Positions 37,895 to 57,313 of a stretch of 64,000 nt of DNA are shown in pieces. The notes under the pieces are model-generated. The model was given only the letters and a program-made list of their open reading frames with translations. It did not search any database and was not told the origin of the DNA. A program made the translations under genes and the position numbers. The stretch covers positions 242,797 through 306,796 of the forward strand of contig PFBI01000006.1 of the NCBI GenBank assembly GCA_002773395.1, in the 5' to 3' direction. Source of the stretch: Candidatus Kaiserbacteria bacterium CG10_big_fil_rev_8_21_14_0_10_47_16. GTDB taxonomy: Bacteria; Patescibacteriota; Minisyncoccia; Phycocordibacterales; UBA918. Position 1 is the first letter of the stretch. Each line of letters opens with the position of its first letter.

Positions 37895-37982
37895 GTTTCT
37901 AAGCTCACTACGTTCGCTAAGAACCTCCTGTCCGGGCTCGCAATCGCCGCATTAGGAATAGCGGCGATATAGCTCCGCCGGG
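37895..37982. repeat. Intergenic repeat family member A
   Basis: Shares 'c.ctacg.t.g...ctaag.ac.tcct.tccgggctcgc' and 'cattaggaatag...gctccg' with the copies at 45.7, 49.7 and 57.2 kb. Confidence 0.5.
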
Positions 37983-38015
37983 TGAAACTAAAAAATATGA
38001 AGCAGTTCATATTTT

Positions 38016-39530
38016 TTAAAGTTTCACCCTATATTGCAGCGCTTCTAGAATATGGGGTGGTTCGATATTTTCCTTCTCATCAAGATCCGCTATTGTCTGC
38101 GCCACCTTGATCACTCGGTGGTAGCTGCGGGGCGAGAGCTTGAGTTTCGTTGCTGACATCCGTAAAAGGTCACGAACTTCGTCGGACAATACTATCTTTT
38201 CATCAATGACTCGCGCAGACATTTCTGCGTTCGCGGTAATGCCTCTGCCCTCAAACCGTTTCTGTTGTCGCGTTCGTGCGGCCGCTATCTGTTCTCGAGC
38301 GCGAGCAGTTTCTCCCGTGCGTGCATTCTCACTCGTCATCGTATCAAAATCAACATGTGGCACTGGAAGCCACAAATCAATACGGTCCAGAATCGGGCCT
38401 GATATTTTCTGTTTATAGGTCTCAAGCATTTGGTCGGTGTAATTGCCGCCATCATCTCCTCCGCGCGTTGGATTCATCGCTGCTACGAGCATGACGTCTG
38501 CAGGAAAGAGTACGGTGGAGTGAACACGTGAAATAGAAACGACTCGATCTTCAAGTGGTTGGCGGAGTGCGTCAATCGAGCGCCGTTCAAATTCAGGAAA
38601 CTCGTCGAGAAACAGTACGCCTCTATGTGCGAGTGTTACTTCCCCTGGTTTCGGGTGAGTGCCACCCCCAACAAGCGACGTGTGCGATGCGGTGTGATGG
38701 GGACTTCGAAACGGCGGCTTCCGCGAAATACCTTCTTCGAGTGTTCCTGCCACGGAATGGATCGCTGTTACTTCGAGTGCCTCCTCGGTAGTAAGTGGTG
38801 GAAGAATACCTTGGAGCGCACGCGCCAGCATTGTCTTTCCTGTCCCCGGTGGTCCAACGAAGATAATATTATGTCGCCCTGCTGCAGCGATAAGCAGTCC
38901 ACGCTTCGCGCTTTCCTGTCCGCGGATATCTTCAAGACGAATGATACCTTCATCCCAGAGTGTTTCGATTTGTGTTGGTGATTGCGAAGGAATGGTTGCA
39001 TGATCTTCCCGTGTTGCATCAATGTGTCTGATAACAGCAAGTAGATTTTCAGCAGGTGTCACGGTAATCCCCGGGATCAATGCTGATTCTTCTGCATTCT
39101 CCATTGGCACAATGACTTCAGTGAAGCCTGCGCGCACTGCCGCTTGCACAACAGGTAGCACGCCCCGTACTCCGCGGAGCGTTCCATCGAGCGCCAACTC
39201 ACCGACCAATAACGTGCGGTCAATTGATACCGTAATTTCTTCGGCAGCAATGAGATACGCAATCGCAATCGGTAAGTCAAAAAGCGGCCCCTCTTTCTTT
39301 AAATCTGCAGGTGCAAGTGAGACAACAATTTTATGATTTTCACTCTTTGGTGACGTAAACCCAGAATTTTTGATAGCGCTACTCACACGATCCTTCGCTT
39401 CTTCCACCGCCTTGCCCGCAAGCCCAACAAGCTGGAACGAATGCAGACCTCGTGAGAGGTCTGCTTCTACCGTGACGATATCTCCCCGAAGAATTCCTGG
39501 CTGTGCGGCAAAAACTCGGGCAACTGACAT
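38016..39530 (-). CDS. comM: Mg-chelatase-like AAA+ protein YifB/ComM
   Basis: Lon-like N-domain, Walker A 'FVGPPGTGKTMLA', Walker B 'VLFLDEFPEF', a ChlI-like C-terminus. Confidence 0.85.
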   Translation of the reverse strand: MSVARVFAAQPGILRGDIVTVEADLSRGLHSFQLVGLAGKAVEEAKDRVSSAIKNSGFTSPKSENHKIVVSLAPADLKKEGPLFDLPIAIAYLIAAEEITVSIDRTLLVGELALDGTLRGVRGVLPVVQAAVRAGFTEVIVPMENAEESALIPGITVTPAENLLAVIRHIDATREDHATIPSQSPTQIETLWDEGIIRLEDIRGQESAKRGLLIAAAGRHNIIFVGPPGTGKTMLARALQGILPPLTTEEALEVTAIHSVAGTLEEGISRKPPFRSPHHTASHTSLVGGGTHPKPGEVTLAHRGVLFLDEFPEFERRSIDALRQPLEDRVVSISRVHSTVLFPADVMLVAAMNPTRGGDDGGNYTDQMLETYKQKISGPILDRIDLWLPVPHVDFDTMTSENARTGETARAREQIAAARTRQQKRFEGRGITANAEMSARVIDEKIVLSDEVRDLLRMSATKLKLSPRSYHRVIKVAQTIADLDEKENIEPPHILEALQYRVKL

Positions 39531-39541
39531 GACTGAGTATA

Positions 39542-39919
39542 TTAGTTTGGAAGGTTAGCTTCTTCTTCTATGTGCGCTTTGCAAGTACGAGCTGCAGGAT
39601 TTGCGTCGAGACGGTCTGTCTCAATTTCTTCTCCTCCTATTTCACACACTCCGTATGTTCCCGCTTCAATATTTGCTAATGCGTGGGTGATGTTGTTGTA
39701 CCGTGTTTCAAGTACCGCAACAGTCGCCTTTCGCTCATCCCATTCTTCCGTGCGATCTGCCACATCGAGTGGATCAGCGTTCGACGTTCCTAAATCTTTC
39801 GTTGTCTCTATCCAGTTTTCAGTATTTTTTGGATCATGAATCCCTATCTCAGTGAGGTCCGCAGTTAATTCTGCAAGCAGTTCTTCAAGCTGTGTTTTAT
39901 ATTTCTGTGTATCTATCAT
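39542..39919 (-). CDS. DksA/TraR-family (general stress protein 16O-like) zinc-finger protein
   Basis: Coiled-coil N-terminus and a 'AL.RIE.GTYG.CE..GEEI...RL.A.P.A..C..C' C-terminus. Confidence 0.6.
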   Translation of the reverse strand: MIDTQKYKTQLEELLAELTADLTEIGIHDPKNTENWIETTKDLGTSNADPLDVADRTEEWDERKATVAVLETRYNNITHALANIEAGTYGVCEIGGEEIETDRLDANPAARTCKAHIEEEANLPN

Positions 39920-39945
39920 AGATATATGGTATCACGAGGTATCTA

Positions 39946-41586
39946 TTACTGAAAAGCTGCTGCAATAGAGGCGAAGGCTTCTTCGGTTGTGGTGATGATG
40001 AGTGTATTTTGATTCAGGAAACCGTAGGTAATGTGCGCAGTAAGCGCTTCATCATAGAGTACACGAACGTTATGTCCTGATACCGTTCGATCGATGAAGC
40101 GTATGCCCGCAGGCTGTCCAAAGAGTGGCGAGAGATCTTGGCTCATGAATGATTCCCACTCAAGCATATTTGCGAATACCGTATCGAAGTTGTTTGTCTT
40201 CAATACCATGTACGGATGTACGCCCGATGTCTTGATACCACCGATCATCATGCGATCATCGAATGCTCTGACGAGACTACTCTGCACATGCGGGTTCAGC
40301 ACCGCAAAGAAATCTCCAGACGTCCATGCAATTGGATTTGCGGTACCGGGAGCAGTGAACACTATCTGACTCTCTGCGCCTGACTGCTGCGCAATAGCAT
40401 TTTGAATACCCCCGAGAAGCGCTGCGCGATCACTCGCGAGAGGAACTGAGAGCGATGAGTCGGTCGCAAAGAATCCAGCAACTGGTTGTGGTTGCGCATT
40501 CTGTCCTTGTGAACGAATGAACGTGTACCCTGCTGTTCCCGCTCCCCCAAGAAGCACAATGGCAAGAAGCACAATGAGGATCTTCCCAATAGAATAATTT
40601 TCTATAAAGCGCGCAAACGCACTCGGACCTTTGGGGACGCTTGGTATTTCTTTCTTCTCTTCGATGATTTTCTTTGGAATCTCAGGTTCAGGAATCGGTT
40701 CTGGCTCTTCTACGATCTCTGGTTCGGGAGTAGGTGGCGGGATAACGGGTTCTGGAACCGGCTCTGGTATTGGTTCCGGAATTGGTTCAGGAATCGGTTC
40801 TGGCTCTTTGACTGGTTGTGGCACAGGGATTGGTTCAGGCTCTGGTATTGAAATAGGTTCTGGTACCGGAGTTGGTACTGGTGCAGGCGCCTGCGTAGGA
40901 GTCTGCGCTTGCGGCTCTGGTCGTGGCGCCACTACCGGAGGTTTCGCTTCTACCCCTGGAGTGCGCTCCGTTATCGTACGCGCAATAAGATCTGGTTTTT
41001 CTTTTATAACTTTTTCCTCACGTCCGCCGAGGAAGTGTGACCATGATGGGCTTTCTTCTTCTCTGTCCTTTTTCTGAATAACAAACGGTTTCCCGGTCAC
41101 TCGTTCTGCATCTTGCTGAAGTGTACGAATACTCGCAAGTACCGCCGATCGATCGTTCGGTTCGGGAGTGAGTTTGTTGGTCACCGCTTCCGTGACTATC
41201 TGTACCCGCTCAGTCCCTGGAGCAACGGTTGGCACTTCCTTTTTCTTTGGGATCATCGGTGTGACGACTGCTTTTGTGGTATCACCTACGATTTCTGAGG
41301 CAGCATCCCTCATTGCCCCAAAGATAGAGCGCCGTGAACGTTGCTTGTCAGTCACAATCACTGCATCGTCCTCAGAGCTTTTCTCTGAAATATTCACGGT
41401 ACTGTCTGCTCCCGAAAGGAGTGAGTTCTTCTCCTCAGCATGGTGCATCGGAGGATTGGCGGGGGCACTGCTCGAAAACGCTGCCTTTGCTTTTGCAGCG
41501 TCAGTTGCCATTGTGTGCACTCCGTTATTCGGTTTCGATGATGACTTTTCGTCCATACAATATGTATAGTATCGCATACGCGACAT
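39946..41586 (-). CDS. Proline-rich (PEPIPEPIPE tandem repeat) membrane protein
   Basis: 'PEPISIPEPEPIPVPQPVKEPEPIPEPIPEPIPEPVPEPV' encoded by 9/18 bp tandem DNA repeats at about 40690-40900, followed by a TM helix and a C-terminal domain. Confidence 0.5.
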   Translation of the reverse strand: MSRMRYYTYCMDEKSSSKPNNGVHTMATDAAKAKAAFSSSAPANPPMHHAEEKNSLLSGADSTVNISEKSSEDDAVIVTDKQRSRRSIFGAMRDAASEIVGDTTKAVVTPMIPKKKEVPTVAPGTERVQIVTEAVTNKLTPEPNDRSAVLASIRTLQQDAERVTGKPFVIQKKDREEESPSWSHFLGGREEKVIKEKPDLIARTITERTPGVEAKPPVVAPRPEPQAQTPTQAPAPVPTPVPEPISIPEPEPIPVPQPVKEPEPIPEPIPEPIPEPVPEPVIPPPTPEPEIVEEPEPIPEPEIPKKIIEEKKEIPSVPKGPSAFARFIENYSIGKILIVLLAIVLLGGAGTAGYTFIRSQGQNAQPQPVAGFFATDSSLSVPLASDRAALLGGIQNAIAQQSGAESQIVFTAPGTANPIAWTSGDFFAVLNPHVQSSLVRAFDDRMMIGGIKTSGVHPYMVLKTNNFDTVFANMLEWESFMSQDLSPLFGQPAGIRFIDRTVSGHNVRVLYDEALTAHITYGFLNQNTLIITTTEEAFASIAAAFQ

Positions 41587-41656
41587 GATCCTCTGTACAC
41601 CATATCGGGAAAACGCCCTGCAGCTAAAAGCTGCAGGGCGTTTCTATTCGAAGAAA

Positions 41657-43789
41657 TTAATTATGTTCGGGAGCGGTGAGGCCTTTCTTCGCGCCAAACT
41701 CTGGGTCAACCTGCTTGATAGAAAGTCCAACCTTTCCATCTTCCACCTTCGTCACAACAACAGAAACGGTCTCACCTTCTGCAAGCACACCATCGAGATC
41801 CTCAAGTCGCCACGGCACGATCTCTGAAATATGAATGAGCCCTTCCGTGGAACCATTGAGGCGTGCAAACGCACCAAACGGCGCGATGCGTGTAATCACT
41901 GCATCCATCTTCTCCCCTACCGCAAAGACGCGAGTGAGTTCGCGGATACGCTCCGCGGCCTTCTCTGCAGTTCCGTCCTTACCGGTAATATATATCGTTC
42001 CGTCTTCTTCAATAGAAATTTCCTGTACGCCGGTATCGTCCTTGATTCCGTTAATTGTTTTTCCGCCACCGCCGATGACGAGTCCAATCTGCGATGACAG
42101 AATACTGAGCGTAATAATCTTTGGCGCACGCGGTGAAATGTCTGGTCGATGTGTTGGCATTTCTTTCTCCATCACCTCAATAATCTGCAAGCGTGCCTGC
42201 TTTGCTTTCTCAAGTGCTTCCCCAAGAATTTTCACAGGAATACCGCCCACCTTCACATCCATCTGCATCGCCGTCACTCCCTCTCGTGTTCCTGCAACTT
42301 TAAAGTCCATATCACCGTGTTCATCTTCCGGACCTTGGATGTCGGTGAGGAGTGCATACTTCTCAGGACTTTCCATCATGAGTCCTGATGCAATACCCGC
42401 AACGTGGCGCATGATTGGCACACCGCCGTCGAGCAGTGCGAGCGTTGAGCCACACACCGATCCCATTGATGATGATCCATTCGATGCCATCGTTTCTGAA
42501 ACCAAACGAATCGTGTATGGAAATTCATCCTTCGGAGGAATAACGGGCACGAGCGCCTTTTCTGCGAGAGCGCCGTGCCCAATCATACGACGATTAAAAC
42601 CGCCAACACGCCCTGCCTCCCCCACTGAAAATGGTGGGAAGTTGTAGTGGTGCATGAATCGCTTCTTTACGTCACGTTCCTCCATCGAATCAATGAGCTG
42701 TGAGTCTTCAGGGCCGCCGAGTGTGAGCGCGGTGAAGATATGTGTTCCTCCGCGGTAGAAGATACCGCTTCCATGAAGGACCGGGGACACGCCGCCGGCC
42801 TGTGCGTAGAGGCTTCGCACTTCATCCATAGCACGACCATCCGCTCGCTTCCCCTCTTCAAGAGCTCCGCGATGAAGTTCGGCGTCGATCGCATGTTCAA
42901 ACATATCCGCGGCCATACCATTGTTTGGATTTTCTATCTGTTCTTTGAGAAGCGTAAACCATTCATCTTTCAGTTCGTAAAGATGCGCTTTTCCCGGCTT
43001 CTCCGAAAAAAGCACTGCAGAGAGTTTTGGAAGAATCGCTGAATCAAAGAGAGCTTGTACATCTTCCGGAATCTCCTTCGATTTGATAGCGCGCTTTTCT
43101 TTCCCAATCTCTGCAATAATATCCTGCTGGAATTTCAGAAGTGTGTTGTGAATTTTCACAGATTCTTCAAGTGCTGCAAGTATCTCACTCTCAGAGACCT
43201 CATTCCCTGCAGTCTCAATCATGTTTACATTGCCATCTTTCCCACAAGCAAGCACCTCGAGTGGAAGCGCTCCTTCTGCACGCTCTTTGTACGTAGGATT
43301 GAAGACCCAATTGCCGGCGATGTCCTTCCCGATACGTACTGCGCCAACAGGGCCTGCCCACGGAATGTTTGAGGTAGCAAGTGCAAGTGATGCACCAATA
43401 ACACCGAGCACGTCTGGGTCATCTTCACCCATTGCGAGCACGGTGATAACCACCTGCACGTCATACCGAATACTATGATCAAAGAGCGGTCTGATGGTAC
43501 GGTCAACAATACGCGCAGAGAGTACTGCTTCATCACTCGGCCGTCCTTCTCGTCGCATAAAGCGACTGCCGAGAATTTGTCCTGCAGCATAAAACTTTTC
43601 CTCAAAGTCTACCGAGAGTGGAAAATACGGCATGCCCGGCTTTTCTTCTTCACCCATGACTGCGGTTACGAGCACCACTGTCTCTCCCATACGAAGCATG
43701 ACTGAGCCGTGTGCGTGTTCGGTAAGGTCAGTAAAGTCTGCGGTGAGGGTCTTCCCCGCAATGTCTACCGAATATGATTTCTTTTGCAT
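41657..43789 (-). CDS. pnp: Polyribonucleotide nucleotidyltransferase (PNPase)
   Basis: Two RNase PH domains, plus KH and S1 domains ('GKVGLSIKQ'). 710 aa. Confidence 0.95.
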   Translation of the reverse strand: MQKKSYSVDIAGKTLTADFTDLTEHAHGSVMLRMGETVVLVTAVMGEEEKPGMPYFPLSVDFEEKFYAAGQILGSRFMRREGRPSDEAVLSARIVDRTIRPLFDHSIRYDVQVVITVLAMGEDDPDVLGVIGASLALATSNIPWAGPVGAVRIGKDIAGNWVFNPTYKERAEGALPLEVLACGKDGNVNMIETAGNEVSESEILAALEESVKIHNTLLKFQQDIIAEIGKEKRAIKSKEIPEDVQALFDSAILPKLSAVLFSEKPGKAHLYELKDEWFTLLKEQIENPNNGMAADMFEHAIDAELHRGALEEGKRADGRAMDEVRSLYAQAGGVSPVLHGSGIFYRGGTHIFTALTLGGPEDSQLIDSMEERDVKKRFMHHYNFPPFSVGEAGRVGGFNRRMIGHGALAEKALVPVIPPKDEFPYTIRLVSETMASNGSSSMGSVCGSTLALLDGGVPIMRHVAGIASGLMMESPEKYALLTDIQGPEDEHGDMDFKVAGTREGVTAMQMDVKVGGIPVKILGEALEKAKQARLQIIEVMEKEMPTHRPDISPRAPKIITLSILSSQIGLVIGGGGKTINGIKDDTGVQEISIEEDGTIYITGKDGTAEKAAERIRELTRVFAVGEKMDAVITRIAPFGAFARLNGSTEGLIHISEIVPWRLEDLDGVLAEGETVSVVVTKVEDGKVGLSIKQVDPEFGAKKGLTAPEHN

Positions 43790-43935
43790 TATAAATTTAC
43801 GTCTTAGGAGCGGTACAGGCTCCAGAGTACAACACTATACGTTGAAACCTGCCTGCCTATATCGCTCACTGATAACACGCCTAGTGTACCAAATATAAAA
43901 AAGCGGCGGAAGGCACTCTGCCTTCCGCCACATAT

Positions 43936-44412
43936 TCAGTGCAACAGCACGCCGTCTTCGAGCATGCATGATGCCAATCGCTCCATAATTGTGGCGCCAA
44001 TACCTCTAAACTTTGGATCGTCCCCCGAGACGCTCTTTTGCGCCCAGTAGAGGAGGACGCGCTTGTTTGCAACAGAACGGAACGTCCCGACACGTGCGAG
44101 ATTTTTATGTTTACTTCCTCGCTTCGCGAAAGAGTGGAACGTATCTGCCAGACGTGCAACCTGAGTCGCATACATTCCTTTTTCCAAGAGACGCGGAGCG
44201 ATCGATTGGATGTAATCGCTGAGAAGCATTGCCTCGTCTATGCTGTTGCGACGTTCGAGCGTTTTGATCAAATCCTCGATGACACGAGGATCACGACCAG
44301 ACGCATCGACCAACTGTTGGAGAGCGACCGCCATCGGTCCTTCAGCACGAAACACATGTTTACTCATGGTATTCCCCACTAATGTAACTATTCTACCGGC
44401 ACTATACTCCAA
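43936..44412 (-). CDS. Hypothetical protein
   Basis: ORF only. No recognisable motifs. Confidence 0.3.
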   Translation of the reverse strand: MEYSAGRIVTLVGNTMSKHVFRAEGPMAVALQQLVDASGRDPRVIEDLIKTLERRNSIDEAMLLSDYIQSIAPRLLEKGMYATQVARLADTFHSFAKRGSKHKNLARVGTFRSVANKRVLLYWAQKSVSGDDPKFRGIGATIMERLASCMLEDGVLLH

Positions 44413-44459
44413 AAAGCCGCGGCACGAAAGTGCCGCGGCTTTTTGGAATGGAGAAGAAA

Positions 44460-45035
44460 TTATCCTTCAATATCATCAGTGTCGGTACCGACAATGTGTT
44501 GAATTTGTCGTTTGAATCCTCCGCGCTGTCGATATCCGATAAGATATTTCTTCGGGTCTTCATCAAGGTCGGTAAATTCATCCACAAACTCTCGGAGCTT
44601 TGATGAACATGAACGACCAAAGGTAATGGCCTCAATCTGGCATCCCTCTGAACGTACATATTCGACAAGTGGAATGAAGTCGCCGTCTCCGGTTGCAATT
44701 ACGATTGCATCTACCTTGCTTGCGACTTTAACGGCATCAATAGCCATTCCAACGTCCCAATCGGCTTTCTTTGCGCCACCGTAAAAGATCTGAAGATCCT
44801 TCGTTTTTACTTCGATGCCTATTTTTTCAAGTGCTTCGAAAAATGGTTGCTCTTCACCTGATTCGGTAGTGACCACGTACGCTTGTGCGCGCACGAGCTT
44901 ACGTCCTCCAACTGCTGTTTTTACAATAGCATCGAAGTTTGCTTTCGCTTTATAAAGGTTTTTTGCACTGTGGTAGAGGTTTTGTGTATCAATAAAAATT
45001 GCCACACGTTGCTCTGGGTGTTTTATAACTGACAT
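44460..45035 (-). CDS. NYN/LabA-like (DUF88) domain protein
   Basis: 'RVAIFIDTQNLYHS' with conserved Asp residues typical of NYN ribonuclease-like domains. Confidence 0.65.
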   Translation of the reverse strand: MSVIKHPEQRVAIFIDTQNLYHSAKNLYKAKANFDAIVKTAVGGRKLVRAQAYVVTTESGEEQPFFEALEKIGIEVKTKDLQIFYGGAKKADWDVGMAIDAVKVASKVDAIVIATGDGDFIPLVEYVRSEGCQIEAITFGRSCSSKLREFVDEFTDLDEDPKKYLIGYRQRGGFKRQIQHIVGTDTDDIEG

Positions 45036-45438: not shown

Positions 45439-45640
45439 ATTCGATATTGTAAAATGAAATATATAGTTCTGCGAGGTAGATAGCCCTCTCGAAGGTGGGA
45501 CTACTTTACCACAAATTGACAGGGAATGCAAGCATAAGACCGGTGAGAAAATGGCGTCTGCTCGCCATTTTTAGGTTACACAAAAGGCCGGCGTGTAACG
45601 CCGGCCTTTTGTAAAACCTAAAATAAAGGCTTATTTTACC

Positions 45641-45813
45641 TCTTCTTCCTTTTGAAGCGGAAGGGTCAAGTTGCTAAGTATAATTCTTCGCTACGCTTGA
45701 ATTCTACTAAGCACTTCCTCCCCGGGCTCGCCTGTTTTGTTTCTAGAAACGAAACAAAACACGGCTCCGCCTCTTACCCACTTCACGAAAGCAAAGCAGT
45801 TTGCTTTCTAAAA
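45641..45813. repeat. Intergenic repeat family member B (directly downstream of the rplE stop, where the spc operon breaks)
   Basis: The 69 nt core 'gggtcaagttgctaagtataattcttcgctacgcttgaattctactaagcacttcctccccgggctcgc' differs from copy C (57202-57270) by 3 nt. It also contains the hairpin 'gttttgtttc-taga-aacgaaacaaaac'. Confidence 0.65.
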
Positions 45814-45819
45814 GCCTCC

Positions 45820-46359
45820 CTATTCGGTCGGCTTTTGAAGTGGCAAGCCAATGTGTCGGAGAACTGCTTCTGCTTCCTCCTTTGACTTTGCTGATGTAAC
45901 AATTGTTACTGCAAACCCAAAAGCGTCCTTGAGTTCATCATCTGCTGTTTCTGGGAAAATACTGTGCTCTGGAATACCGAGCGTATAGTTCCCCATTTCA
46001 TCAATCGCTGAAACCTTAAGACCGCGGAAGTCGCGAGTACTTGGAAGTGCAATGTGTATAAGCTTATCAAGGAAGTGATGCATTCGGGCTCCACGAAGTG
46101 TTACCTGAAATCCAATCACGTCTCCCTCTCGAAGTTTAAAGCTTGCAATAGATTGCTTCGCCTTACGTGGTGCAACTTTCTGACCAGTAATAAGTGCGAG
46201 ACGATTCTGAATCAACTGAATCTTCTGTTTATCTGCAACCTTACCAATACCTGTTGAGATCACCACCTTCTCGATACGCGGTGTTTGCATAACATTCACA
46301 TATCCAAACCCTTCTTTCAGGGTATCAAATGCTGTCTGTAATTTTTCTTTTATAATCAT
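45820..46359 (-). CDS. rplE: 50S ribosomal protein L5
   Basis: L5 signature 'GIGKVADKQKI...ITGQK' and 'REGDVIGFQVTLRG'. Confidence 0.9.
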   Translation of the reverse strand: MIIKEKLQTAFDTLKEGFGYVNVMQTPRIEKVVISTGIGKVADKQKIQLIQNRLALITGQKVAPRKAKQSIASFKLREGDVIGFQVTLRGARMHHFLDKLIHIALPSTRDFRGLKVSAIDEMGNYTLGIPEHSIFPETADDELKDAFGFAVTIVTSAKSKEEAEAVLRHIGLPLQKPTE

Positions 46360-46369
46360 ATGCGTATAT

Positions 46370-49067: not shown

Positions 49068-49079
49068 AGAGAGTAATTA

Positions 49080-49406: not shown

Positions 49407-49637
49407 ACGAAAAAATCGCGCGTTATGCGCTTCTTAGGGATCTCTTGCAAAGACATTTAACGGTTGTCCTTGGCAGAGACCCCTAAAACCAATAATTAAC
49501 TGTTCAATTGTGTTGTTTCCCGCTTCCCAAGGCCGAAAACAACTGAGGTTTGGAACGTGGCTATAGTACGGGATTTGGGGGAAGATGTCAATGAAAATGA
49601 CCCGAATCTGCGAAAAGGGCTTGTTTATCGCTTCCGT

Positions 49638-49790
49638 CACAAGTTGCTAACTATATTTTTTCGCTTCGCTCAAAATCTAGTAAGCACTCGCGACCCCGCC
49701 TCATAGTCGTGCTCGCTTCGCTGCGCGCGACATATTCCGGCTTGGCAAAAGGTCGAAAGCAAATCCTTTTGCTTTCTAAACAACAAAAAT
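49638..49790. repeat. Intergenic repeat family member D inside a 410 nt insert between rpsS and rplB
   Basis: 'caagttgctaa.tat...cgct.cgct....ctagtaagcact' and 'cgaaagcaaa.c..tttgctttctaaa' are shared with copy B. It ends in a bidirectional terminator at 49784-49815. Confidence 0.5.
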
Positions 49791-49817
49791 CCCTCCGCAA
49801 GGAGGGATTTTTGTTGT

Positions 49818-50678
49818 TTACCTTTTACCACCCATGATGCGACCTGGCTTGCGCCGAGCAACAATGAGGTTGTTTGAGTATTTCTTTGGACTTCGAGTCT
49901 TTTGACCCTTTCCTGTTGGGCGACCTTGTTTGGTTCGCTGACGGCGGTGTCCTCGAGGACTCACACCTTCTCCACCTCCATGTGGGTGGTCAACAGGGTT
50001 ACGTGCAGTACCACGGTTCTTCGGTCGAAGACCACGGTGACGCGCGCGTCCCGCCTTACCAAGTGTTACGAGCTGATGCTCTTCGTTTGATACCTCACCG
50101 ATGGTTGCCCATGCAGTTGAGAGTACTTTACGAATTTCAGATGATGGCATTTTCACTTGCGTGTATCCTGCATCATGTGAGAGCACTTCTGCTCGGTTTC
50201 CAGCACTTCGTGCAAGTCGTGCACCAGCGCCTGGCTTGATTTCAACGTTATACACCGGAGTTCCTGATGGAATGTTACCAAGTGGCAACCGATTCCCTGG
50301 TGTTGGCTTTGCTTTTTCTGAGACGATGAACGTATCTCCTACCTTCATGCTTTGTGAAGCAAGAACGTATCGACGCTCACCATCTGCGTAACATACGAGT
50401 GCAATGAATCCTGATCGGTATGGATCGTATTCAACAGATTCAATTTTTGCTGGCACGTCTTTTTTATCGAATTTGAAGTCGACTGTCCGATACGTGCGCT
50501 TGTTTCCCCCACCACGGTAGTGCTGGGTGATGCGACCCTGGTTGTTACGACCACCAGTTCGCGAGCCTCCACGCGTGAGGCGCTTTGCCGGACTATTTTT
50601 CGTGCTGGACAGTTTCTCTTTGTATGAGACCACGGTCATCCCGCGCCGTCCAGCTGATGTTGGCTTGTATTTCTTCAT
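49818..50678 (-). CDS. rplB: 50S ribosomal protein L2
   Basis: The conserved L2 C-terminal region. Confidence 0.9.
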   Translation of the reverse strand: MKKYKPTSAGRRGMTVVSYKEKLSSTKNSPAKRLTRGGSRTGGRNNQGRITQHYRGGGNKRTYRTVDFKFDKKDVPAKIESVEYDPYRSGFIALVCYADGERRYVLASQSMKVGDTFIVSEKAKPTPGNRLPLGNIPSGTPVYNVEIKPGAGARLARSAGNRAEVLSHDAGYTQVKMPSSEIRKVLSTAWATIGEVSNEEHQLVTLGKAGRARHRGLRPKNRGTARNPVDHPHGGGEGVSPRGHRRQRTKQGRPTGKGQKTRSPKKYSNNLIVARRKPGRIMGGKR

Positions 50679-50691
50679 AAGCGTGGATTAG

Positions 50692-51063
50692 TTACACGAG
50701 GTCAATCTTATCGCCGTCTTTAAGGTAGACGTACGCTTTCTTAAGACCGCTCTCGCTTATTTTTCTACCTTTGCTGCGTGCCATGTAGGTACGAGCTTTC
50801 TTTGTAACAGTGTGTACCTTTTTAGGGGTTACCTTGAACAATGCAATTACCGCATCACGTACGTCAAATTTTGTTGCACGTGGGTCGATTTCAAACGTGT
50901 ACACGTTCTTTTCAGTGCCGAGTACCGCTTTCTCAGTAATACGTGGCTTACGAATTACTGATGAGAGATCACGCATCGCAATCGGTGCTGAAGCTCCCTT
51001 CTTTGTCTTCTTTGCGTCAGCAGTTGTTTCAACTGCTTCGCCTTTCTTTGCAAAAAGTGCCAT
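50692..51063 (-). CDS. rplW: 50S ribosomal protein L23 (with an N-terminal extension)
   Basis: 'ITEKAVLGTEKNVYTFEIDPRATKFDVRDAV'. Confidence 0.85.
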   Translation of the reverse strand: MALFAKKGEAVETTADAKKTKKGASAPIAMRDLSSVIRKPRITEKAVLGTEKNVYTFEIDPRATKFDVRDAVIALFKVTPKKVHTVTKKARTYMARSKGRKISESGLKKAYVYLKDGDKIDLV

Positions 51064-51066
51064 ACG

Positions 51067-51759
51067 CTATTTACTTACCGCCTTACGTGCAGTCTTGGTT
51101 GCAACTCGGGTTTCAAGAACCTTAATTGCATCCGCTGGTTCTGCAACAATGACGTACTTATAGGTGAGTAACTCGACCGGACTGATGTCCTTTGCCTGCA
51201 GTGTTCGTATGTTCCCGAAGTTTCGGAAACTAAGCTCTGCGTTTTCACTTCGTGCCGGAAGCACAATAAGTGCGTTGTTCTTCTTCTTTGTTTTGAGGTC
51301 TTCTGCTCCTGCTACACCACTGAGTGACACGAGCGCTGCTTTTGCATCGAGTGTCTTCGGTGCGCTGAAGTTGAAGGTGTCAACAAAGAGTACTTCGCCG
51401 TCTGCGTACTTCTTTGAAAGTACACTCGCGAGTGCTTTTGCACGAACGTTCTTATTGATCTTCTTACTGTAATCTTTTTCAGCAATAGGACCGTGTGCAA
51501 CACCTCCTCCTGCCCAAATCGGTGAACGACGTGAACCGTGACGTGCGCGTCCAGTACCCTTCTGCTTCCATGGCTTTTTACCACCACCTTGTACTTCGCT
51601 TCGGTCCTTTGTATCTGCAGTACCCTTGCGAGCGTTTGCTTGCATCGAAGTTACTACTTCGTGTACAAGGTCTGCGTTCCACTTTGTACCAAAGACTGCG
51701 TCAGGAAGTGCTACTTTTCCCGTTTCCTTCCCCGCTGTTGAATATACTTTTGCTTCCAT
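51067..51759 (-). CDS. rplD: 50S ribosomal protein L4
   Basis: 'KPWKQKGTGRAR.GS...P.W.GGGVA.GP'. Confidence 0.9.
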   Translation of the reverse strand: MEAKVYSTAGKETGKVALPDAVFGTKWNADLVHEVVTSMQANARKGTADTKDRSEVQGGGKKPWKQKGTGRARHGSRRSPIWAGGGVAHGPIAEKDYSKKINKNVRAKALASVLSKKYADGEVLFVDTFNFSAPKTLDAKAALVSLSGVAGAEDLKTKKKNNALIVLPARSENAELSFRNFGNIRTLQAKDISPVELLTYKYVIVAEPADAIKVLETRVATKTARKAVSK

Positions 51760-51764
51760 GATAC

Positions 51765-52385
51765 TTATACGCTACGTACTTCCACTAATGTTCCTGTTCG
51801 ACCTGGTACTGCTCCTTTCACAAGGAGTAGATTTTCATCTTTATTTACTTGGAGAACTTTGAGGTTCTGTACGGTAATACGATCGCCTCCCATACGTCCC
51901 GCCATACGGGTACCTTTCTGTACGCGCTGGATACCACCGATACCGATAGATCCTGGCTCACGATGTGAGTGCTTCTGACCGTGCGACGCACGACCTCCTG
52001 CGAAATTGTGACGCTTTACCACACCCTGAAATCCCTTTCCTTTTGAGATTGCAGAAACGGTAATAACATCACCTGCTTCAAATACTGATACATCAAGTTC
52101 CTGTCCCTTTACGAACTCTCCGAGCACTTCGCTCTTTGATGGTCGTGGACGAAATTCCTTGATGAATTTTTTTGCACCGCCGAGATGACCCTTGATGGCT
52201 TTTCCGAGACGTTGTTCCTTCTGTTCACCTGCTGCAATTTGTACCGCTTCGTACCCGTCCTTCTCAGGATTACGTACTTGCGACACGATTGCTGGGGTGA
52301 CACGAAGAATGGTTGCAGCATGCGCTACACCCTGCTCGTCGAAGATCTGAGTCATTCGTTCTTTTGTGCCTACAATGAATTTCAT
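51765..52385 (-). CDS. rplC: 50S ribosomal protein L3; start at ATG 52385
   Basis: 'GTKERMTQIFDEQG' and 'GKGFQGVVKRHNF.GG..SHG'. The track ORF runs upstream into a noncoding spacer. Confidence 0.9.
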   Translation of the reverse strand: MKFIVGTKERMTQIFDEQGVAHAATILRVTPAIVSQVRNPEKDGYEAVQIAAGEQKEQRLGKAIKGHLGGAKKFIKEFRPRPSKSEVLGEFVKGQELDVSVFEAGDVITVSAISKGKGFQGVVKRHNFAGGRASHGQKHSHREPGSIGIGGIQRVQKGTRMAGRMGGDRITVQNLKVLQVNKDENLLLVKGAVPGRTGTLVEVRSV

Positions 52386-53029
52386 TCTAAAATCATTGTT
52401 ACCTGATAAATCGCTTAAGAGACCCCGAGTGTTCCTTTTTAAATGACGGCAGATGCGAGGCATGCGAAGAAAATATTGTGAGCCGTATATACATACGGTG
52501 AACATTATTTTACTGACGCATAACGATGCAGATGTGGCATTTTAAAAGGAACAAAAAACCGCGCTTTCATAGCGCGAGCACAAGCTCGCACAATAAAAAG
52601 CGCGGTTTTGTGCCCATTGGTCCGTCAAAACTGACGTACATAGGTCTTTAAAGCTGGCCGCAGTATACGTTTTCTCACAGAAATTGCAAGGATTCCTGAT
52701 ATAAACTGCAGAGGGCTTGCTGTTTTAAAGAATAAGACGTACAGTACGGAAAGCAGGGACCAAGGGGGTCACTGCGTGTTAAAAAGAGGAGGTCGACATG
52801 CATCCCATTGCACGTCACGTCGCGGGAGCACCCCCTATCGTGGGAGTCCACCCTGAGCGGCCTCTCAAAGTTCCTTGGTTCATTTCATAAGGAGACTCAT
52901 CTGGGACACTAGGTCCCCCTGATAGACGTCAGTACGGCCCCGACACATGTACGCGTGTGTCGGGGTCTACTTATTTTATACATACAATACAAAACCCCGC
53001 GCCTACGGCGCGGGGTTTTGTATGTTCTC

Positions 53030-53155
53030 CTATTTCTTCATCTTGTTCGTAAGCCACATGATCACGAGAATCCCCACAATCAACCATACTATTTCGTTTG
53101 CAAACCCAAGGAGACTGTTGAGTCCCCATTCATGAAACGGACCGTAACCCATCAT
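53030..53155 (-). CDS. Candidate 41 aa single-TM peptide inside the rpsJ-rplC spacer (speculative)
   Basis: MMGYGPFHEWGLNSLLGFANEIVWLIVGILVIMWLTNKMKK. Flanked by terminator hairpins, with no clear RBS. Confidence 0.25.
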   Translation of the reverse strand: MMGYGPFHEWGLNSLLGFANEIVWLIVGILVIMWLTNKMKK

Positions 53156-53380
53156 ATAAGAATAATTAATGAAATAATATTCATTATACGAGAGAATCCG
53201 TAATCGCGGGTTCCCTGTGGGGGACACACAAAAACCAAAAAGCCGGCTCTTTACGGAGCCGGCTTTTTGCCAAAACAACAACGCTACTGTCAAACGAGCG
53301 AACGTCGTGAGAAATCGAAGCGAGTGCGACGATTTTTCATGACTGAGCGAGCGCTGACAGAAAGAAAAGCTGTGCTTTTC

Positions 53381-53740
53381 TTACATCATCTTCACGTCAA
53401 TGTTGACGCCCGATGGGAGTGAGAGATTCGTAAGTGCTTCAATGACTTTTGCACTCGGATTCATGATGTCGATGACACGCTTGTGCATTCGCATCTCGAA
53501 TTGTTCTCGCGCATCTTTAAAGATGAATGACGAACGGTTCACCGTATACTTTTTGATTTCTGTTGGCAGTGGAATTGGACCAATCACTTTCGCATCAAAG
53601 CGAAGTGCAGTATCAATAATCTGCTTCACTGAAACATCAAGGATCTTGTGCTCATAGGCTCGCACGCGGATGCGCAGTTTCTGCACATCGCCTGCTGGCG
53701 CCGCACTCTTCTTACTCTTTGTTGTTGTTTTTGTTGTCAT
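53381..53740 (-). CDS. rpsJ: 30S ribosomal protein S10
   Basis: 'KLRIRVRAYEHKILDVSVKQII'. Confidence 0.9.
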   Translation of the reverse strand: MTTKTTTKSKKSAAPAGDVQKLRIRVRAYEHKILDVSVKQIIDTALRFDAKVIGPIPLPTEIKKYTVNRSSFIFKDAREQFEMRMHKRVIDIMNPSAKVIEALTNLSLPSGVNIDVKMM

Positions 53741-53765
53741 GGTACTACTTCAATTACTAATAGGG

Positions 53766-54956
53766 TTAGGCGATGATCTTTGTTACCACACCTGCTCCTA
53801 CTGTCTTACCTCCTTCACGAATCGCAAAGTTCTGTTGTTCTTCGAGCGCAACTGGCGCAACGAGCTTTACCTTAAAGGTAGCGGTATCTCCTGGCATAAC
53901 CATTTCAGTACCTTCAGCAAGTGTTACGTCTCCTGTTACGTCAGTTGTTCGGATGTAGAACTGTGGCTTGTATCCAGAGAAGAATGGTGTGTGACGACCT
54001 CCTTCATCCTTAGAAAGTACGTATACTTCCGCTTCAAATTCTGTGTGCGGTGTTACTGAGCCCTTTGCTGCAAGCACCTGACCTCGGTGTACGTCTTCCT
54101 TCTTTGTACCACGGAGGAGGATACCGGCGTTGTCGCCAGCCTGCGCAGCGTCGAGCTGCTTGTTGAACATTTCAACTCCAGTCACTGTTGTGAGTGCAGT
54201 ATCCTTGATACCAACAATCTGAATTTCTTCACCTACCTTTACCTTTCCACGTTCTACACGACCAGTTACTACTGTACCGCGTCCTTCAATTGAGAAGATG
54301 TCTTCAATTGGCATAAGGAACGGCTTGTCGAGATCACGTTGTGGCTCTGGGAAGTAGCTATCCATCGCATCAACGAGTTCGATAACCTTCGCTCCCCATT
54401 CGCTACTTGGATCTTCAAGTGCCTTCAAACCAGAACCCTTGATGATTGGCGCGTTTGCACCATCAAATCCGTTCTTCGTAAGGAGTTCTCGAAGTTCTTC
54501 TTCAACGAGCATGATCATTTCCTCGTCGTCTACCATATCGCACTTGTTGAGGAATACGATAATGTTTGGTACACCCACCTGCTTCGCAAGAAGTACGTGC
54601 TCACGAGTTTGTGGCATCGCACCGTCTGTCGCAGCTACTACGAGTACCGCGCCGTCCATCTGCGCTGCACCAGTGATCATGTTCTTGATGTAGTCAGCGT
54701 GTCCTGGAGCGTCGATGTGTGCGTAGTGACGATTTGGTGTCTCGTACTCAGAGTGAGAAAGAGAAATAGTAATACCACGCGCCTTTTCTTCTGGCGCTTT
54801 ATCAATATCTTCTACGGCCTTCATGTTTGCAGCATATCCTTCACCCTTACCGTGAAGTACGCTGAGAATCGCGGCAGTAAGCGTTGTCTTACCATGGTCA
54901 ACGTGACCAATAGTACCTACGTTTACGTGCGGCTTTGATCGATCAAAATCTGCCAT
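53766..54956 (-). CDS. tuf: Elongation factor Tu
   Basis: '[14 protein letters not shown]', 'DAPGHADY', 'NKCD'. Confidence 0.95.
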
Positions 54957-55316
54957 ATTACGCAAAAATTAATTTACTAAATGATAATTTTCCGCACATA
55001 CTGCGACTCTTTAAAAAAGAGATGTTGTGCAAGCACTCAGGGGTAACGGCGCGAGAACGCCGCGTTACCTCCAATCACTTGCGCTTGTATGAATAAAGAG
55101 CGAAAACCCGTTTGAGTTACTCCTCACATCCTACGGATGCTGTACACTGTGTGGCTTTATTATTTCGCAATGCTCATAATATAGCTCACACAGTCTTGCG
55201 GAGTTTCACTCCTCACACGCCAAAAGCGCGATGCGGTGCCCGCCATGGTACATGAGTGTATACCCAACGTCAAGCCATTTTTAATCAAAATACACCGTCT
55301 TCCTGTGGTATGATTT

Positions 55317-56462
55317 TTGGTAATGGAGCAGGCAAAACAGGTTGTCAGCACACTACTCAAAAAGGCCAACATTGAATTGGGCGGTAGCCGGCCGTTTGAC
55401 CCTACCGTGAACGACGAACGTCTCTACCAGCGTATTCTTCGTGGTGGCTCCCTCGCGCTCGGTGAGAGCTATATGGACGGGTGGTGGAGTGTCGATAGGC
55501 TTGATGCACTCATTGCAAAAGTACGGCGCCTCGACCTTCAAAGAGATTTGTATGCAAAGCCGCTTGCAGGAGCAGCGCTCTTCTTTCACATCATAAAAGC
55601 ACGCCTCTTTAACCTCCAAAACATGAAGCGAGCGCTCCACGTGAACGAGCGACACTATGATATTGGAAATGATTTGTATGAAAAGATGCTCGACCCGTGG
55701 ATGCAGTACACCTGTGCGTACTGGGATCGTGGTGCTGAAAACCTCAATGAGGCGCAAGTAGCAAAACTGGCCCTTATTGCAGAGAAACTCAAACTCCGAC
55801 CCGGTATGCGAGTACTTGATATTGGATGCGGATGGGGTGGTCTCTCCAAATACCTCGCGCAGACACACGGTGTCATTGTAGACGGCATTACCCTTTCAAA
55901 AGAACAAAAGGTCTTTGCGGACAACTTTGTAAAAGGTACCTCCGCCACCATTCACTACGCTGATTATCGTACATACACGAATGAACCCTACGATCGCATT
56001 GTGTCTATTGGTATGTTTGAAGCGGTGGGATACAAAAATTTCCGTACGTACATGGAGTGCGCGCATCGACTCCTCAAGGACGACGGGATCTTTCTTCTGC
56101 ATACCATTGGTACGAATGTGACCGTGTACGCTGGTGATCCGTGGATTGATGCCTACATTTTTCCGAACGGCATGCTCCCTTCCCCATCGCAAATTTCTGA
56201 CAGTATCGAAAAACTCTTTGTCATGGAGGATTGGCACAACTTCGGTCCAAGTTACGACAAAACGCTCATGGCGTGGTACGAAAACTTCAAAGCTGCATGG
56301 CCAGAGCTGAAAGAGAGCGGTGCATACGACGATCGTTTTTATCGCATGTGGGAGTACTATCTCCTCATGTGTGCAGGACTCTTCCGCGCGCGCAAGACGC
56401 AGCTTTGGCAGATAATACTGACAAAAGGTGGATTGCCTGATGGGTATCAAAGTGTTCGATAG
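55317..56462 (+). CDS. cfa: Cyclopropane-fatty-acyl-phospholipid synthase family SAM-dependent methyltransferase
   Basis: 'RVLDIGCGWGGL' SAM motif and overall CFA synthase architecture. Confidence 0.8.
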   Translation: MVMEQAKQVVSTLLKKANIELGGSRPFDPTVNDERLYQRILRGGSLALGESYMDGWWSVDRLDALIAKVRRLDLQRDLYAKPLAGAALFFHIIKARLFNLQNMKRALHVNERHYDIGNDLYEKMLDPWMQYTCAYWDRGAENLNEAQVAKLALIAEKLKLRPGMRVLDIGCGWGGLSKYLAQTHGVIVDGITLSKEQKVFADNFVKGTSATIHYADYRTYTNEPYDRIVSIGMFEAVGYKNFRTYMECAHRLLKDDGIFLLHTIGTNVTVYAGDPWIDAYIFPNGMLPSPSQISDSIEKLFVMEDWHNFGPSYDKTLMAWYENFKAAWPELKESGAYDDRFYRMWEYYLLMCAGLFRARKTQLWQIILTKGGLPDGYQSVR

Positions 56463-56511
56463 TATAAAAATGTGAAAGCCGCAGGTCCCCTTGGGGGCCT
56501 GCGGCTGGTGT

Positions 56512-57054
56512 TTACGAAAGATGTTTCGATTCAGTTCCTTCAAAGAGTGTCCGTACAAGTCGTTCACCCTCTTCAAGAAATGCGTCTCCTTCCATAGATG
56601 TACCCATGTATCGCTCCATCAAAGGAGCAAACGCATATGCGCTATTACTAATTTCTCGCGAGCGATGTTCGCAAAAAACAGTGACGTCCGCAGGGTCGGC
56701 CTTTTCTTGGAGAAACAATGGGATTTCCCATATGCCGATCAACTGATATGCGACCGTCTCCTCTGAAACATTCGAAGTCACGACCAGTAGGAGGTACTCT
56801 TGGATAAGATCCCGCAAGAAGTATGCAAGGTCCACGGATTTTCCCTGTTCGTCTTTCATTACGAACGTGATCTCCGTGTAAAAGAGGATGTTTTCCTCTG
56901 ATTCACGGATTTCCGAAGTGATACTCAAGGTCTTGCTCTGATGAATCAATTGTCGTGCAACAGGCATCGTCCAATCTTCGGTGTTTACAAGCTCCCAGCC
57001 TGACTGCTGAAGGAGCTCCATGACGTCAGTGACCTCTTCTACGTTAATGGACAT
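56512..57054 (-). CDS. Hypothetical protein
   Basis: ORF only. Confidence 0.3.
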   Translation of the reverse strand: MSINVEEVTDVMELLQQSGWELVNTEDWTMPVARQLIHQSKTLSITSEIRESEENILFYTEITFVMKDEQGKSVDLAYFLRDLIQEYLLLVVTSNVSEETVAYQLIGIWEIPLFLQEKADPADVTVFCEHRSREISNSAYAFAPLMERYMGTSMEGDAFLEEGERLVRTLFEGTESKHLS

Positions 57055-57201
57055 CGTGTTCTCTCTTATAACTCAAGGTACGTTCCTTTGCAGTATTGCG
57101 TATATGAGGAGGGTTGTAAAGGAAAAGGCCAACAGCGGAGCTGTTGGCCTTTTCCTTGGTTGCATGGTTTTTTTATTCTTCCTTGAAGTTTATATCCTTG
57201 A

Positions 57202-57313
57202 GGGTCAAGTTGCTAAGTACAATTCTGCGCTACGCTTGAATTCTACTAAGCACTTCCTCCCCGGCCTCGCTGGTTCGGGACATTAGGAATAGTCCCTCAC
57301 ATCGCTCCGGCTC
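57202..57313. repeat. Intergenic repeat family member C (upstream of the fusA terminator)
   Basis: Its 69 nt core is nearly identical to copy B. It shares 'cattaggaatag' with copy A. Confidence 0.65.

Follow-up and report, generated by a model that had tools for sequence, protein, structure and literature searches.

Why does a short repeat recur between genes exactly where the ribosomal-protein operons of Candidatus Kaiserbacteria bacterium CG10_big_fil_rev_8_21_14_0_10_47_16 are interrupted? The question arises from a 64-kb window (the whole stretch of DNA analyzed herein, 64,000 nucleotides of contig PFBI01000006.1). The initial annotation of this window described a four-member intergenic repeat family at the operon breaks. 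It was suggested to be either a mobile repeat resembling a miniature inverted-repeat transposable element (MITE) that had mediated the rearrangements, or a family of structured RNA elements. The answer proposed here, with moderate confidence, is that the repeats are the centers of small non-autonomous insertion cassettes occupying the 3' ends of conserved genes. These cassettes would spread by gene-end recombination and be read through as a 3' trailer.

The four copies, A to D, form a real repeat family. Copies B (45662-45736) and C (57201-57275) are 93% identical across 75 nt, which confirms the core similarity noted earlier for this pair, and D aligns with the same 75-nt stretch without gaps at 67% identity. 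A 25-nt module is common to A, B, and C, and a 27-nt hairpin (CGAAAGCAAA...TTTGCTTTCTAAA, 89% identity) is common to B and D. Copies inside one genome are 60-70% identical, i.e. not near-identical. When a degenerate pattern fitted to all four copies (TAAGMAC-N3-C-N3-CCSGSCTC-N25-45-GCTYSGS) was scanned across the window, exactly A-D were matched, on the plus strand every time, and no match was found in 100 shuffles. A covariance model named R1, described below, gives scores of 98 bits for B, 92.2 for C, 73.6 for A, and 71.2 for D (E 8e-22 to 2.5e-15). The count of four is correct for these copies but missed a fifth, diverged one: R1 also detects copy E (6503-6581, minus strand, 22.7 bits, E 0.0012) directly behind the transfer-messenger RNA (tmRNA) gene.

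The gene order on the minus strand was assigned by Pfam as rpsG, a glutathione S-transferase gene, fusA, copy C, a 180-aa open reading frame (ORF), a CMAS gene (on the plus strand), tuf, rpsJ, an 875-nt gap, rplC-rplD-rplW-rplB, copy D, rpsS through rplE, copy B, rpsO, NYN, pnp, and further genes up to comM and copy A. These assignments uphold the gene context first given for B, C, and D. Copy B lies behind the rplE stop, and the next gene is rpsO in place of rpsN/rpsH/rplF. Copy D lies inside a 411-nt gap between rplB and rpsS. Copy C lies between fusA and the 180-aa ORF, which has no Pfam match. A covariance search of the window with Rfam 15 gave no hit at the gathering score and none at the cores even at E = 10. 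Similarly, five other loci searched with Rfam gave no match up to E = 1.

The family is found far outside this genome. A pattern scan with one genome per species found at least 115 loci. The Patescibacteria matches share the complete architecture, and their record titles, among the matches listed, include Paceibacteria, Kaiserbacteria, Campbellbacteria, Wolfebacteria, Nomurabacteria, Vogelbacteria, Minisyncoccia, and many 'uncultured Saccharibacteria' bins. The upstream half of the motif is missing from the pattern matches in GC-rich genomes outside the candidate phyla radiation (CPR); these matches are due to chance. An alignment and the R1 model were built from 58 distinct copies, and R1 then gave 95 hits in the 75 CPR genome loci sampled and 124 hits in 91 independent metagenome loci. 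The family total is more than 200 copies in Parcubacteria/Paceibacteria-type CPR genomes and metagenomes. The viral contigs searched contain no true family match, and a phage origin was rejected on this ground. No description of the element was found in the literature searched.

Multiple alignment and consensus folding, the check suggested together with the initial annotation, gave a common fold that is backed by covariation. The core is about 100 nt long and consists of two different irregular helices, P3 and then a long P2, with invariant internal loops. The modeled structure has 19 pairs, and 95.6% of the cells in the core helices are paired. Changes on both sides of a pair were counted in 164 cells, compared with 56 in shuffles, and none of 500 shuffles attained the observed value. 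By covariation score, the alignment reaches 0.389 and the shuffles 0.121; with slid partners, the score is 0.07 or below, i.e. the signal is lost. Covariation is strong in two helices. The K-M pair is UA in 39 sequences and GC in 34 with no exceptions, TTGCTAA going with TAAGCAC and TTTCTAA with TAAGAAC. The S-S' pair is GC in 39 sequences and CG in 31, so that GGC/GCC swaps with GCC/GGC, and one P2a pair is GC in 28, UA in 25, and CG in 15. The copies are a genuine family with a shared secondary structure and compensatory changes. The fear that only short chance matches without a common fold would be seen is answered by the R1 scores and the covariation. The element is an undescribed, class-wide, and abundant structured family without an Rfam entry.

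Several known kinds of RNA were tried as candidates and rejected. An anti-Shine-Dalgarno small RNA is rejected because the CUUCCUCCCC stretch covaries within helix P2 and is therefore structural. TIGR-Tas arrays are unrelated, since those are 36-nt tandem guide RNAs. A riboswitch or leader for the downstream gene does not fit either: between the core of B and rpsO there are a terminator and, apart from it, a promoter-like site (identified by eye), and copy A has no downstream gene on that strand.

The cores are the center of a larger unit, whose orientation is fixed relative to the upstream gene. On the strand of that gene, the unit is ordered as segment a with the stop codon; one or more hairpins or a terminator; segment a', which is an inverted copy of a; the core (P3, P2); and segment a'', which is a direct copy of a. 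Segment a gives the gene its last 10-40 nt in a version that belongs to the cassette and carries a new stop codon. A conserved AAGCAAA-CUGC-UUUGCUU hairpin is frequent between a and a', often beside the terminator, and the whole cassette measures about 180-300 nt. The coordinates given at first cover the conserved cores but leave out the flanking copies of the neighboring gene's 3' end, which are part of each real unit. The feature strands below follow the upstream gene, while R1 was built on the complementary strand; hairpins and terminators are given without a strand.

In copy B, the core (45662..45771, minus strand) is defined by the R1 hit and the fold. Segment a holds the rplE codons LPLQK (45832..45847, minus), with the present stop at 45820-45822. 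It is followed by the P4 hairpin GAAAGCAAA-GCAG-TTTGCTTTC (45787..45808), which repeat comparison also found in D and in many copies of other genomes, and by a', a perfect 8-nt inverted copy of a (45778..45785, minus). Behind the core, a'' (45631..45663, minus) reads in frame as LPLQKEEEVK-stop, where the present rplE ends in LPLQKPTE-stop. It is followed by a strong terminator (45569..45623), the old one of rplE, and this has its homologue in the sequence 3' of rplE in the relative L120, whose site is empty.

Similarly, the core of copy C (57201..57311, minus) is preceded by the last fusA codons CATAAAAGATATTGAGG as segment a (57385..57401, minus; stop 57374-57376), a terminator (57337..57373), and a perfect 17-nt inverted copy a' (57313..57329, minus), identified as an inverted repeat. 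Segment a'' (57173..57202, minus) reads LKDINFKEE-stop, where the present end is IKDIEVEE-stop, and the old terminator lies behind it (57125-57155). In copy A, the core (37887..37979) lies on the minus strand, which is that of the upstream comM. Segment a holds the last comM codons, GGGTGAAACT on the minus strand (38020..38029; stop 38016-38018; gene assigned by Pfam). A hairpin or terminator, AAAAAATATGAA-GCAG-TTCATATTTTTT (37990..38017), lies between it and a', a perfect 10-nt inverted copy (37980..37989, minus). The a'' segment (37877..37891, minus) reads TLKL-stop, where comM now ends in RVKL-stop, and an inverted repeat at 37832-37880 forms the old bidirectional terminator.

In copy D, the core (49635..49741, minus) is preceded by the last rplB codons TGGTAAAAGGT as segment a (49820..49830, minus; stop 49818-49820). 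A strong terminator lies just past the rplB stop, within the S10 operon (49781..49819), followed by the P4 hairpin repeated in B (49755..49776). Segment a', ACCTTTTGCCA on the minus strand (49743..49753, minus), forms 11 bp with a, and its sole non-Watson-Crick position is G-U only on the minus strand. Segment a'' reads RKR-stop (49625..49636, minus), where the present end is GKR-stop. A sigma-70-like promoter match, TTGACA-17-TACTAT (49563..49591, minus), lies between a'' and rpsS and is the best in the 20-kb region.

Copy E is diverged in its core (6503..6581), which lies on the plus strand, the strand of the tmRNA. Its flanking architecture nevertheless fully matches that of the tmRNA-associated copy in L073 (79 bits), and each of the two is matched to its own tmRNA sequence. 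Segment a is the tmRNA 3' end from T-loop to acceptor end (6398..6420, plus), followed by a terminator (6421..6454). Segment a' (6455..6502, plus) is in two parts, TGTGGAGA and GTCGGGAGTTGAAC, split by a P4-like hairpin at 6467-6488. Segment a'' is a 13-nt direct copy of the tmRNA 3' end, CGGCATCTCCACA (6586..6598, plus). The last 9 nt of the tmRNA together with the terminator (6412-6454, 43 nt) recur at 100% identity about 1 kb on, at 7415-7457. These 43-nt repeats bracket copy E and a DUF218 gene (6672-7334). A terminator 77% identical to that of the tmRNA is found at 7940-7982, behind the next ORF, which encodes a zinc-finger protein (7535-7930). The region looks like cargo that has accreted at the 3' end of the tmRNA gene.

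The segments behind the cores carry the evidence for insertion. A direct copy of the gene end lies behind the core in all five window copies, and an in-frame stop closes it in all four at protein genes. L5 proteins of relatives have C-termini in the style of the segment behind B, e.g. ...LQKEEVKA and ...LQKEEEVTE. The B segment with its stop and downstream terminator aligns with the rplE 3' flank of L120, whose L5 is 84% identical. The clpP 3' end in five species has the same layout, with VD(K/T/D)I(Y/L)K-stop behind the core in each. In L113, three clpP ends are stacked with two cores and a core fragment, which points to repeated insertion at the clpP site. When present and displaced gene ends were compared at ten sites, 27 synonymous and 11 non-synonymous codon differences were found (p = 1e-4 against a 40% synonymous expectation). 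Such a synonymous bias is not expected of a freely decaying relic; it fits a cassette that imports a gene end evolved as coding sequence in another lineage. Judged from these sequences, a'' is the relic of the original gene end, displaced behind the core.

Which genes carry the element? In the genome loci, counted within 260 nt, 55 transfer RNA (tRNA) or tmRNA genes precede a copy at distances of 41-233 nt and are co-oriented with it on the gene-strand reading, and the other three configurations number 6, 6, and 1. The metagenome loci replicate this result (32 co-oriented upstream genes versus 1). About 40-55% of the copies lie behind a co-oriented tRNA or tmRNA gene, at 41-250 nt, and 18 kinds of these genes are involved. 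The other copies follow the stop codons of protein genes, among them rplE, rplB, fusA, comM, clpP, and ftsZ; EF-G (about 20 loci), FtsZ (12), and ClpP (11) recur. In the tRNA copies of L018 and L023, the direct repeat is 19-22 nt or longer and runs from the T-loop through the acceptor end. The window itself holds a tRNA-Ile gene with anticodon TAT (345-419), and the same rare tRNA precedes an element copy in L009. The element is not a tRNA-like gene or a tRNA pseudogene: the TTCGAATCC-like flanks are true copies of the adjoining tRNA's 3' end, and the segment preceding the core is the complement of a T-loop, not a T-loop. The apparent tie to ribosomal-protein operons, from which the question started, arises since highly conserved genes in general, at their 3' ends, are the targets of the element.

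The rplE site was used to compare occupied and empty loci. It is occupied in the window and in L054 (L5 64% identical), where the unit is in tandem, and empty in five relatives, namely L120 (84%), L122 (82%), L116, L118, and L119. The model search found no element in the 48 nt following the rplE stop of L120, and those 48 nt are its own terminator; the contig ends there, 48 nt beyond the stop. Another relative, L121 (L5 86% identical), has a contig that ends exactly at the rplE stop, as expected where a repeat interrupts assembly. The clpP copies of L099 and L056 have cores 96.5% identical over 115 nt, variable hairpins included, while the adjoining clpP coding sequences are 70% identical and agree at 34% of third codon positions. 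Together, the relics, the empty sites, the stacking, the core identity above that of the host gene, and the synonymous bias indicate that the cassette has been inserted and has spread horizontally. Within the window genome, B (rplE) and C (fusA) have P2 helices 93% identical and different P3 hairpins, and L102 carries a P2 hairpin of another kind in its orthologous fusA copy, a pattern suggestive of exchange or gene conversion between copies inside the genome. In L110, a 340-nt direct repeat (2767-3102 and 5824-6158; 99% identical) consists of the 3' part of a tRNA and an element copy. The two repeats flank a 3-kb segment with a TaqI/Eco57I-type DNA methylase and a 209-aa ORF, which is probably restriction-modification cargo.

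The same observations bear on a different explanation, in which the element is a host-encoded, vertically inherited, cis-acting 3' untranslated or trailer RNA that acts in processing, stabilization, or termination and has no mobility, the gene-end repeats being selected for alternative pairing. Occupation of one and the same site is shared by many species (about 20 loci for fusA, 12 for ftsZ, 11 for clpP), compensatory changes keep the a:a' pairing between orthologous copies, the core covaries strongly, and the gene strand folds better and has G/A-rich loops; all of these would be expected of such an RNA. Against it stand the relic stops and relic terminators, and direct repeats that are much longer than pairing needs (in L023, 20 nt against 9 nt for the inverted repeat). 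It is also opposed by the empty sites in the closest relatives, by the stacked clpP relics, by core identities between species far above those of the flanking essential gene, and by present/relic differences that are mainly synonymous. This explanation is considered improbable.

The signatures of known mobile elements were then compared with the copies. No terminal inverted repeats are common to the copies; the arms differ per copy and equal the end of the neighboring gene. Target-site duplications at the edges, proposed earlier as a mark to look for, were not found as short duplications of fixed length: the direct repeats range from 8 to more than 40 nt, are gene-end copies, and are diverged at synonymous sites. 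The 64-kb window was found to encode no transposase, no integrase, and no reverse transcriptase. When the neighbors of about 180 copies were clustered, no protein recurred except those of conserved host (housekeeping) genes. An element-encoded tyrosine or serine recombinase is absent from the insert, which is about 200 nt long without an ORF, and none recurs nearby. No GTTRRRY R/L boxes of an integron attC site are evident by eye in the aligned flanks, though no pattern search was made; the tandem arrays seen have no intervening ORFs, and no integrase is present in the window. The core of about 100 nt with two irregular helices also differs from the imperfect 20-40 nt palindromes of REP/BIME elements, which go with a RAYT transposase gene, and no Y1 or HUH transposase was found in the window. 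A group II intron is not indicated: there is no Rfam match, and no reverse-transcriptase domain in the window ORFs scanned. By contrast, all five window copies and the tRNA copies in L018 and L023 bear the kind of signature that integrases leave, in which the 3' end of the target is repeated directly and the old end is displaced as a relic.

These results bear directly on a classical MITE or a transposon derived from an insertion sequence (IS) whose transposition broke the ribosomal-protein operons. In its favor, the copies are repeated, intergenic, and at interrupted operon junctions, and assemblies of close relatives break at the rplE stop. The lack of shared terminal inverted repeats, the different arms in every copy, the 60-70% identity of same-genome copies, and the lack of a transposase all speak against it. 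L116 and L118 also have an operon that ends after rplE, and they have no element there; L122 has an intact spc operon (rplE-rpsN-rpsH-rplF...) and no element. Copy B precedes the old rplE stop and terminator, so that the rplE|rpsO junction lies beyond the element and B is not at the rearrangement junction. Since relatives without the element break the operon after rplE too, the element is not the cause of that break, and the suggestion that it mediated the rearrangements is not sustained: the element evidently did not cause the operon breaks. The likelihood of a classical MITE or IS-derived transposon is judged to be very slight. Of the earlier MITE-like description, the mobility is retained in the insertion signatures (relics, empty sites, and stacking), but the copy-specific arms and the missing shared terminal repeats and transposase are not those of a MITE.

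Copy D did put a strong terminator behind rplB, and the best promoter match lies between its relic and rpsS, so that transcription of the S10 operon is probably split at D. Other irregularities of these operons were noted. The S10 operon has an 875-nt gap between rpsJ and rplC (52506-53380) with several strong hairpins or terminators on both strands and no R1 match. The glutathione S-transferase gene sits between rpsG (likely with rpsL upstream) and fusA (59860-60519 and 60720-61659), so that the str operon is also interrupted, with no element copy adjoining rpsG. In L122, most ribosomal-protein genes (218-3906) are spaced unusually far apart (36-354 nt), with no R1 match there.

Is the element read as RNA or as DNA, and on which strand? 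Of 73 cores, 70 fold more stably as the complement of the modeled strand, which is the gene strand. The whole B unit folds at -83.9 kcal/mol on the gene strand and -71.6 kcal/mol on the other, with z about -6 on both. On the gene strand, the conserved internal loops are G/A-rich (GA/GA at the tip of hairpin 1, GGA/GA in P3), while the other strand has UC/UC-type mismatches. Single wobbles in the a:a' or a':a'' pairing of A, C, D, L046, and L102 are G-U on the gene strand only. From these features and the fixed orientation of the unit, we infer a gene-strand RNA as the more likely form. The part of the initial annotation that spoke of structured RNA elements stands for the common covarying fold, whereas the indicators of transcription are mixed.

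An RNA of the opposite strand has been weighed on the same data. The copies would then be independent small-RNA genes opposite the upstream gene (the plus strand of the window for A-D), acting as antisense regulators of the neighboring 3' ends. Bidirectional terminators bracket each core, the opposite strand also folds (z = -6.3), and the P2a 7-6 pair is G-U on that strand in 41 sequences, all of which would suit such genes. Against this, no sigma-70-like promoter was found upstream of any core on that strand, the loops become pyrimidine-pyrimidine mismatches (UC/UC, UC/CC) in addition to the less stable fold, and the relics and the fixed placement behind tRNA genes are left unaccounted for. 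Antisense genes are regarded as very unlikely.

How might the cassette have spread? A mechanism that seems quite possible, if somewhat short of an even chance, is that its own copy of a highly conserved gene end serves as the anchor for recombination, by which it spreads inside Parcubacteria lineages and from one to another. Two routes are conceivable, namely a circular form that integrates by one crossover, and recombination facilitated by homology once DNA has been taken up. Either route would produce the direct repeat a...a'', stacked insertions, and a preference for the most conserved genes, and no element-encoded enzyme would be needed. The inserted cassette would be transcribed by read-through on the gene strand. 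Segment a' would then have two possible partners: pairing with the gene end would put the stop codon inside a long hairpin or next to it, and pairing with the relic would close the core. This core would most likely be a protein-binding or processing module of the 3' trailer, a role that may account for its long retention.

The a:a' stems are perfect or nearly so, while their sequence differs among orthologous copies; the stem has 17 bp in window copy C and 10 bp in each of L102 and L010, and 11-15 bp at clpP sites. In L099, the loop of a 15-bp a:a' stem holds the last two codons together with the stop. These stems are either selected or continually re-templated.

Several points weigh against the recombining-cassette reading. 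Plain homologous recombination leaves the origin of a' and the acquisition of new target genes unaccounted for, and perfect a:a' stems re-matched per species could mean a guide-like role or dedicated machinery. The copies at fusA, ftsZ, and clpP occur so widely that vertical inheritance may explain a large part of their distribution, and high core identity between species could in principle come from very strong selection, not transfer. With regard to the strand, isolated wobbles in the core helices number 15 versus 25 without clear strand bias, P1 duplex energies favor the gene strand only weakly (53 versus 40, p = 0.10), and hairpin 1 has four G-U pairs on the opposite strand versus none on the gene strand, as an antisense gene would also predict. 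The working form may therefore instead be single-stranded DNA or an RNA of the opposite strand.

A rival reading is a miniature integrative element moved in trans by a structure- or guide-dependent recombinase or nuclease, for which the folded core, as single-stranded DNA or RNA, would be the protein-binding scaffold and a' (with a'') the source of target specificity. Its analogues would be folded attC sites or the attP of the CTX phage, and the guide segments of bridge or omega RNAs. Segment a' perfectly complements the present gene end, adjoins the scaffold, and is re-matched in every species and target. Segments a' and a'' together make a duplex copy of the target that closes the core. Direct repeats at tRNA genes begin in the T-loop, the classical integrase crossover region, and the core-helix wobbles lack a strand bias, as for a fold at the DNA level. 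Tandem accretion is seen, and the 3-kb restriction-modification cargo of L110 lies between 340-nt element-bearing repeats. On the other side, no recombinase, transposase, reverse transcriptase, or nuclease gene recurs by the approximately 180 copies and none is in the window, the viral contigs searched hold no copies, and the literature searched describes nothing of this kind for these bacteria. A guide for a sequence present twice in the occupied locus would also target its own locus. Such an element is thought unlikely, though it deserves serious consideration. In the form of greatest consequence, it would be a self-addressing mobile element of about 200 nt without a protein gene that replaces gene ends class-wide, its core being a scaffold or even a catalytic RNA and its a' a re-writable guide that pairs with a chosen conserved gene at the 3' end; a small but tangible chance is given to this form as well.

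Two further features of the window stand apart from the cassettes. Neighboring segments of about 1.2 kb (26491-27704 and 27900-29125) are 73-80% identical and lie in two large ORFs without a confident Pfam domain above threshold, which suggests tandem paralogues. A 546-aa ORF (39946-41586) without a Pfam match has a 12-nt periodic repeat at 40685-40899 that is GGTTCTGG-like and encodes a Gly/Ser-rich stretch.

Parcubacteria, within the CPR, have tiny genomes, and to our knowledge almost no non-coding RNAs or small mobile elements have been described for them. About half of the tRNA genes in the loci sampled are marked by the element, and so are several essential genes. Its insertion rewrites the last codons of essential genes and puts stops inside long hairpins and terminators inside ribosomal-protein operons, and this mode of insertion helps to account for large gaps in those operons. 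Annotation can be led astray by relic gene ends and by partial copies of tRNA genes, and the assemblies of close relatives are interrupted at such sites. Should the target-matching arm prove to be a guide, the cassette would amount to an addressing module of minimal size that has no protein. As a 3' trailer RNA and nothing more, it would still be the first cis-acting RNA module of wide distribution to be described for this radiation.

The cassette was finally compared with known systems. Some integrative elements, among them the islands and phages of tRNA or tmRNA genes and the icd elements e14 and phage 21, bring their target gene a new 3' end. The cassette resembles these integrative elements in the direct repeat of the gene 3' end, with the insert supplying the working end and the old end on the far side, in tRNA repeats that start in the T-loop, and in tandem accretion at one site. 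It differs in being about 200 nt long with no integrase, usually no cargo, and dozens of targets per lineage, and in having an extra inverted target copy and a conserved folded core. Fragments of tRNA genes left by integrative elements have been reported (PMC9897764).

Similarly, the cassette is like integron attC sites with their gene cassettes, and like the folded single-stranded attP of the CTX phage, in lying just after ORFs, in a fold kept by covariation and not by sequence alone, in tandem arrays, and in a hairpin that reproduces a duplex copy of the target. Unlike these recombination sites, the cassette has a core with long invariant sequence and duplicated gene ends and is not known to recombine, and no IntI was found in the window. 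REP/BIME, ERIC, BOX/RUP, Correia (NEMIS), and Rickettsia palindromic elements are short multi-copy hairpin elements, mostly 3' of genes and co-transcribed; the Rickettsia elements also insert into coding regions and RNA genes. The cassette is likewise short, multi-copy, hairpin-forming, and mostly downstream of genes. However, those families are species- or genus-specific and homogeneous, with their own ends or inverted repeats, whereas the cassette family is class-wide and covarying, and its flanks are copies of target-gene ends.

A structured scaffold adjoining a short target-matching segment is also known in the bridge RNA of IS110, the omega RNA of TnpB/IscB, and the homing spacers of CRISPR-associated transposons. 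The cassette differs from these guide RNAs in having no adjacent effector gene, in a matching segment that is present in both orientations and self-pairing, and in the lack of an Rfam match (e.g. to IS605-orfB families); the resemblance to guide-bearing element RNAs is speculative. Class C group II introns insert just past terminator hairpins and base pair with the flank, as the cassette does. The cassette is at least 6 times smaller than these introns, without a reverse transcriptase found or an Rfam match, and its target is duplicated. None of the systems compared has, all at once, a core that covaries across a class, gene-end targets by the dozen, an inverted target copy, and no enzyme gene, and a mechanism of a new kind is a serious possibility.

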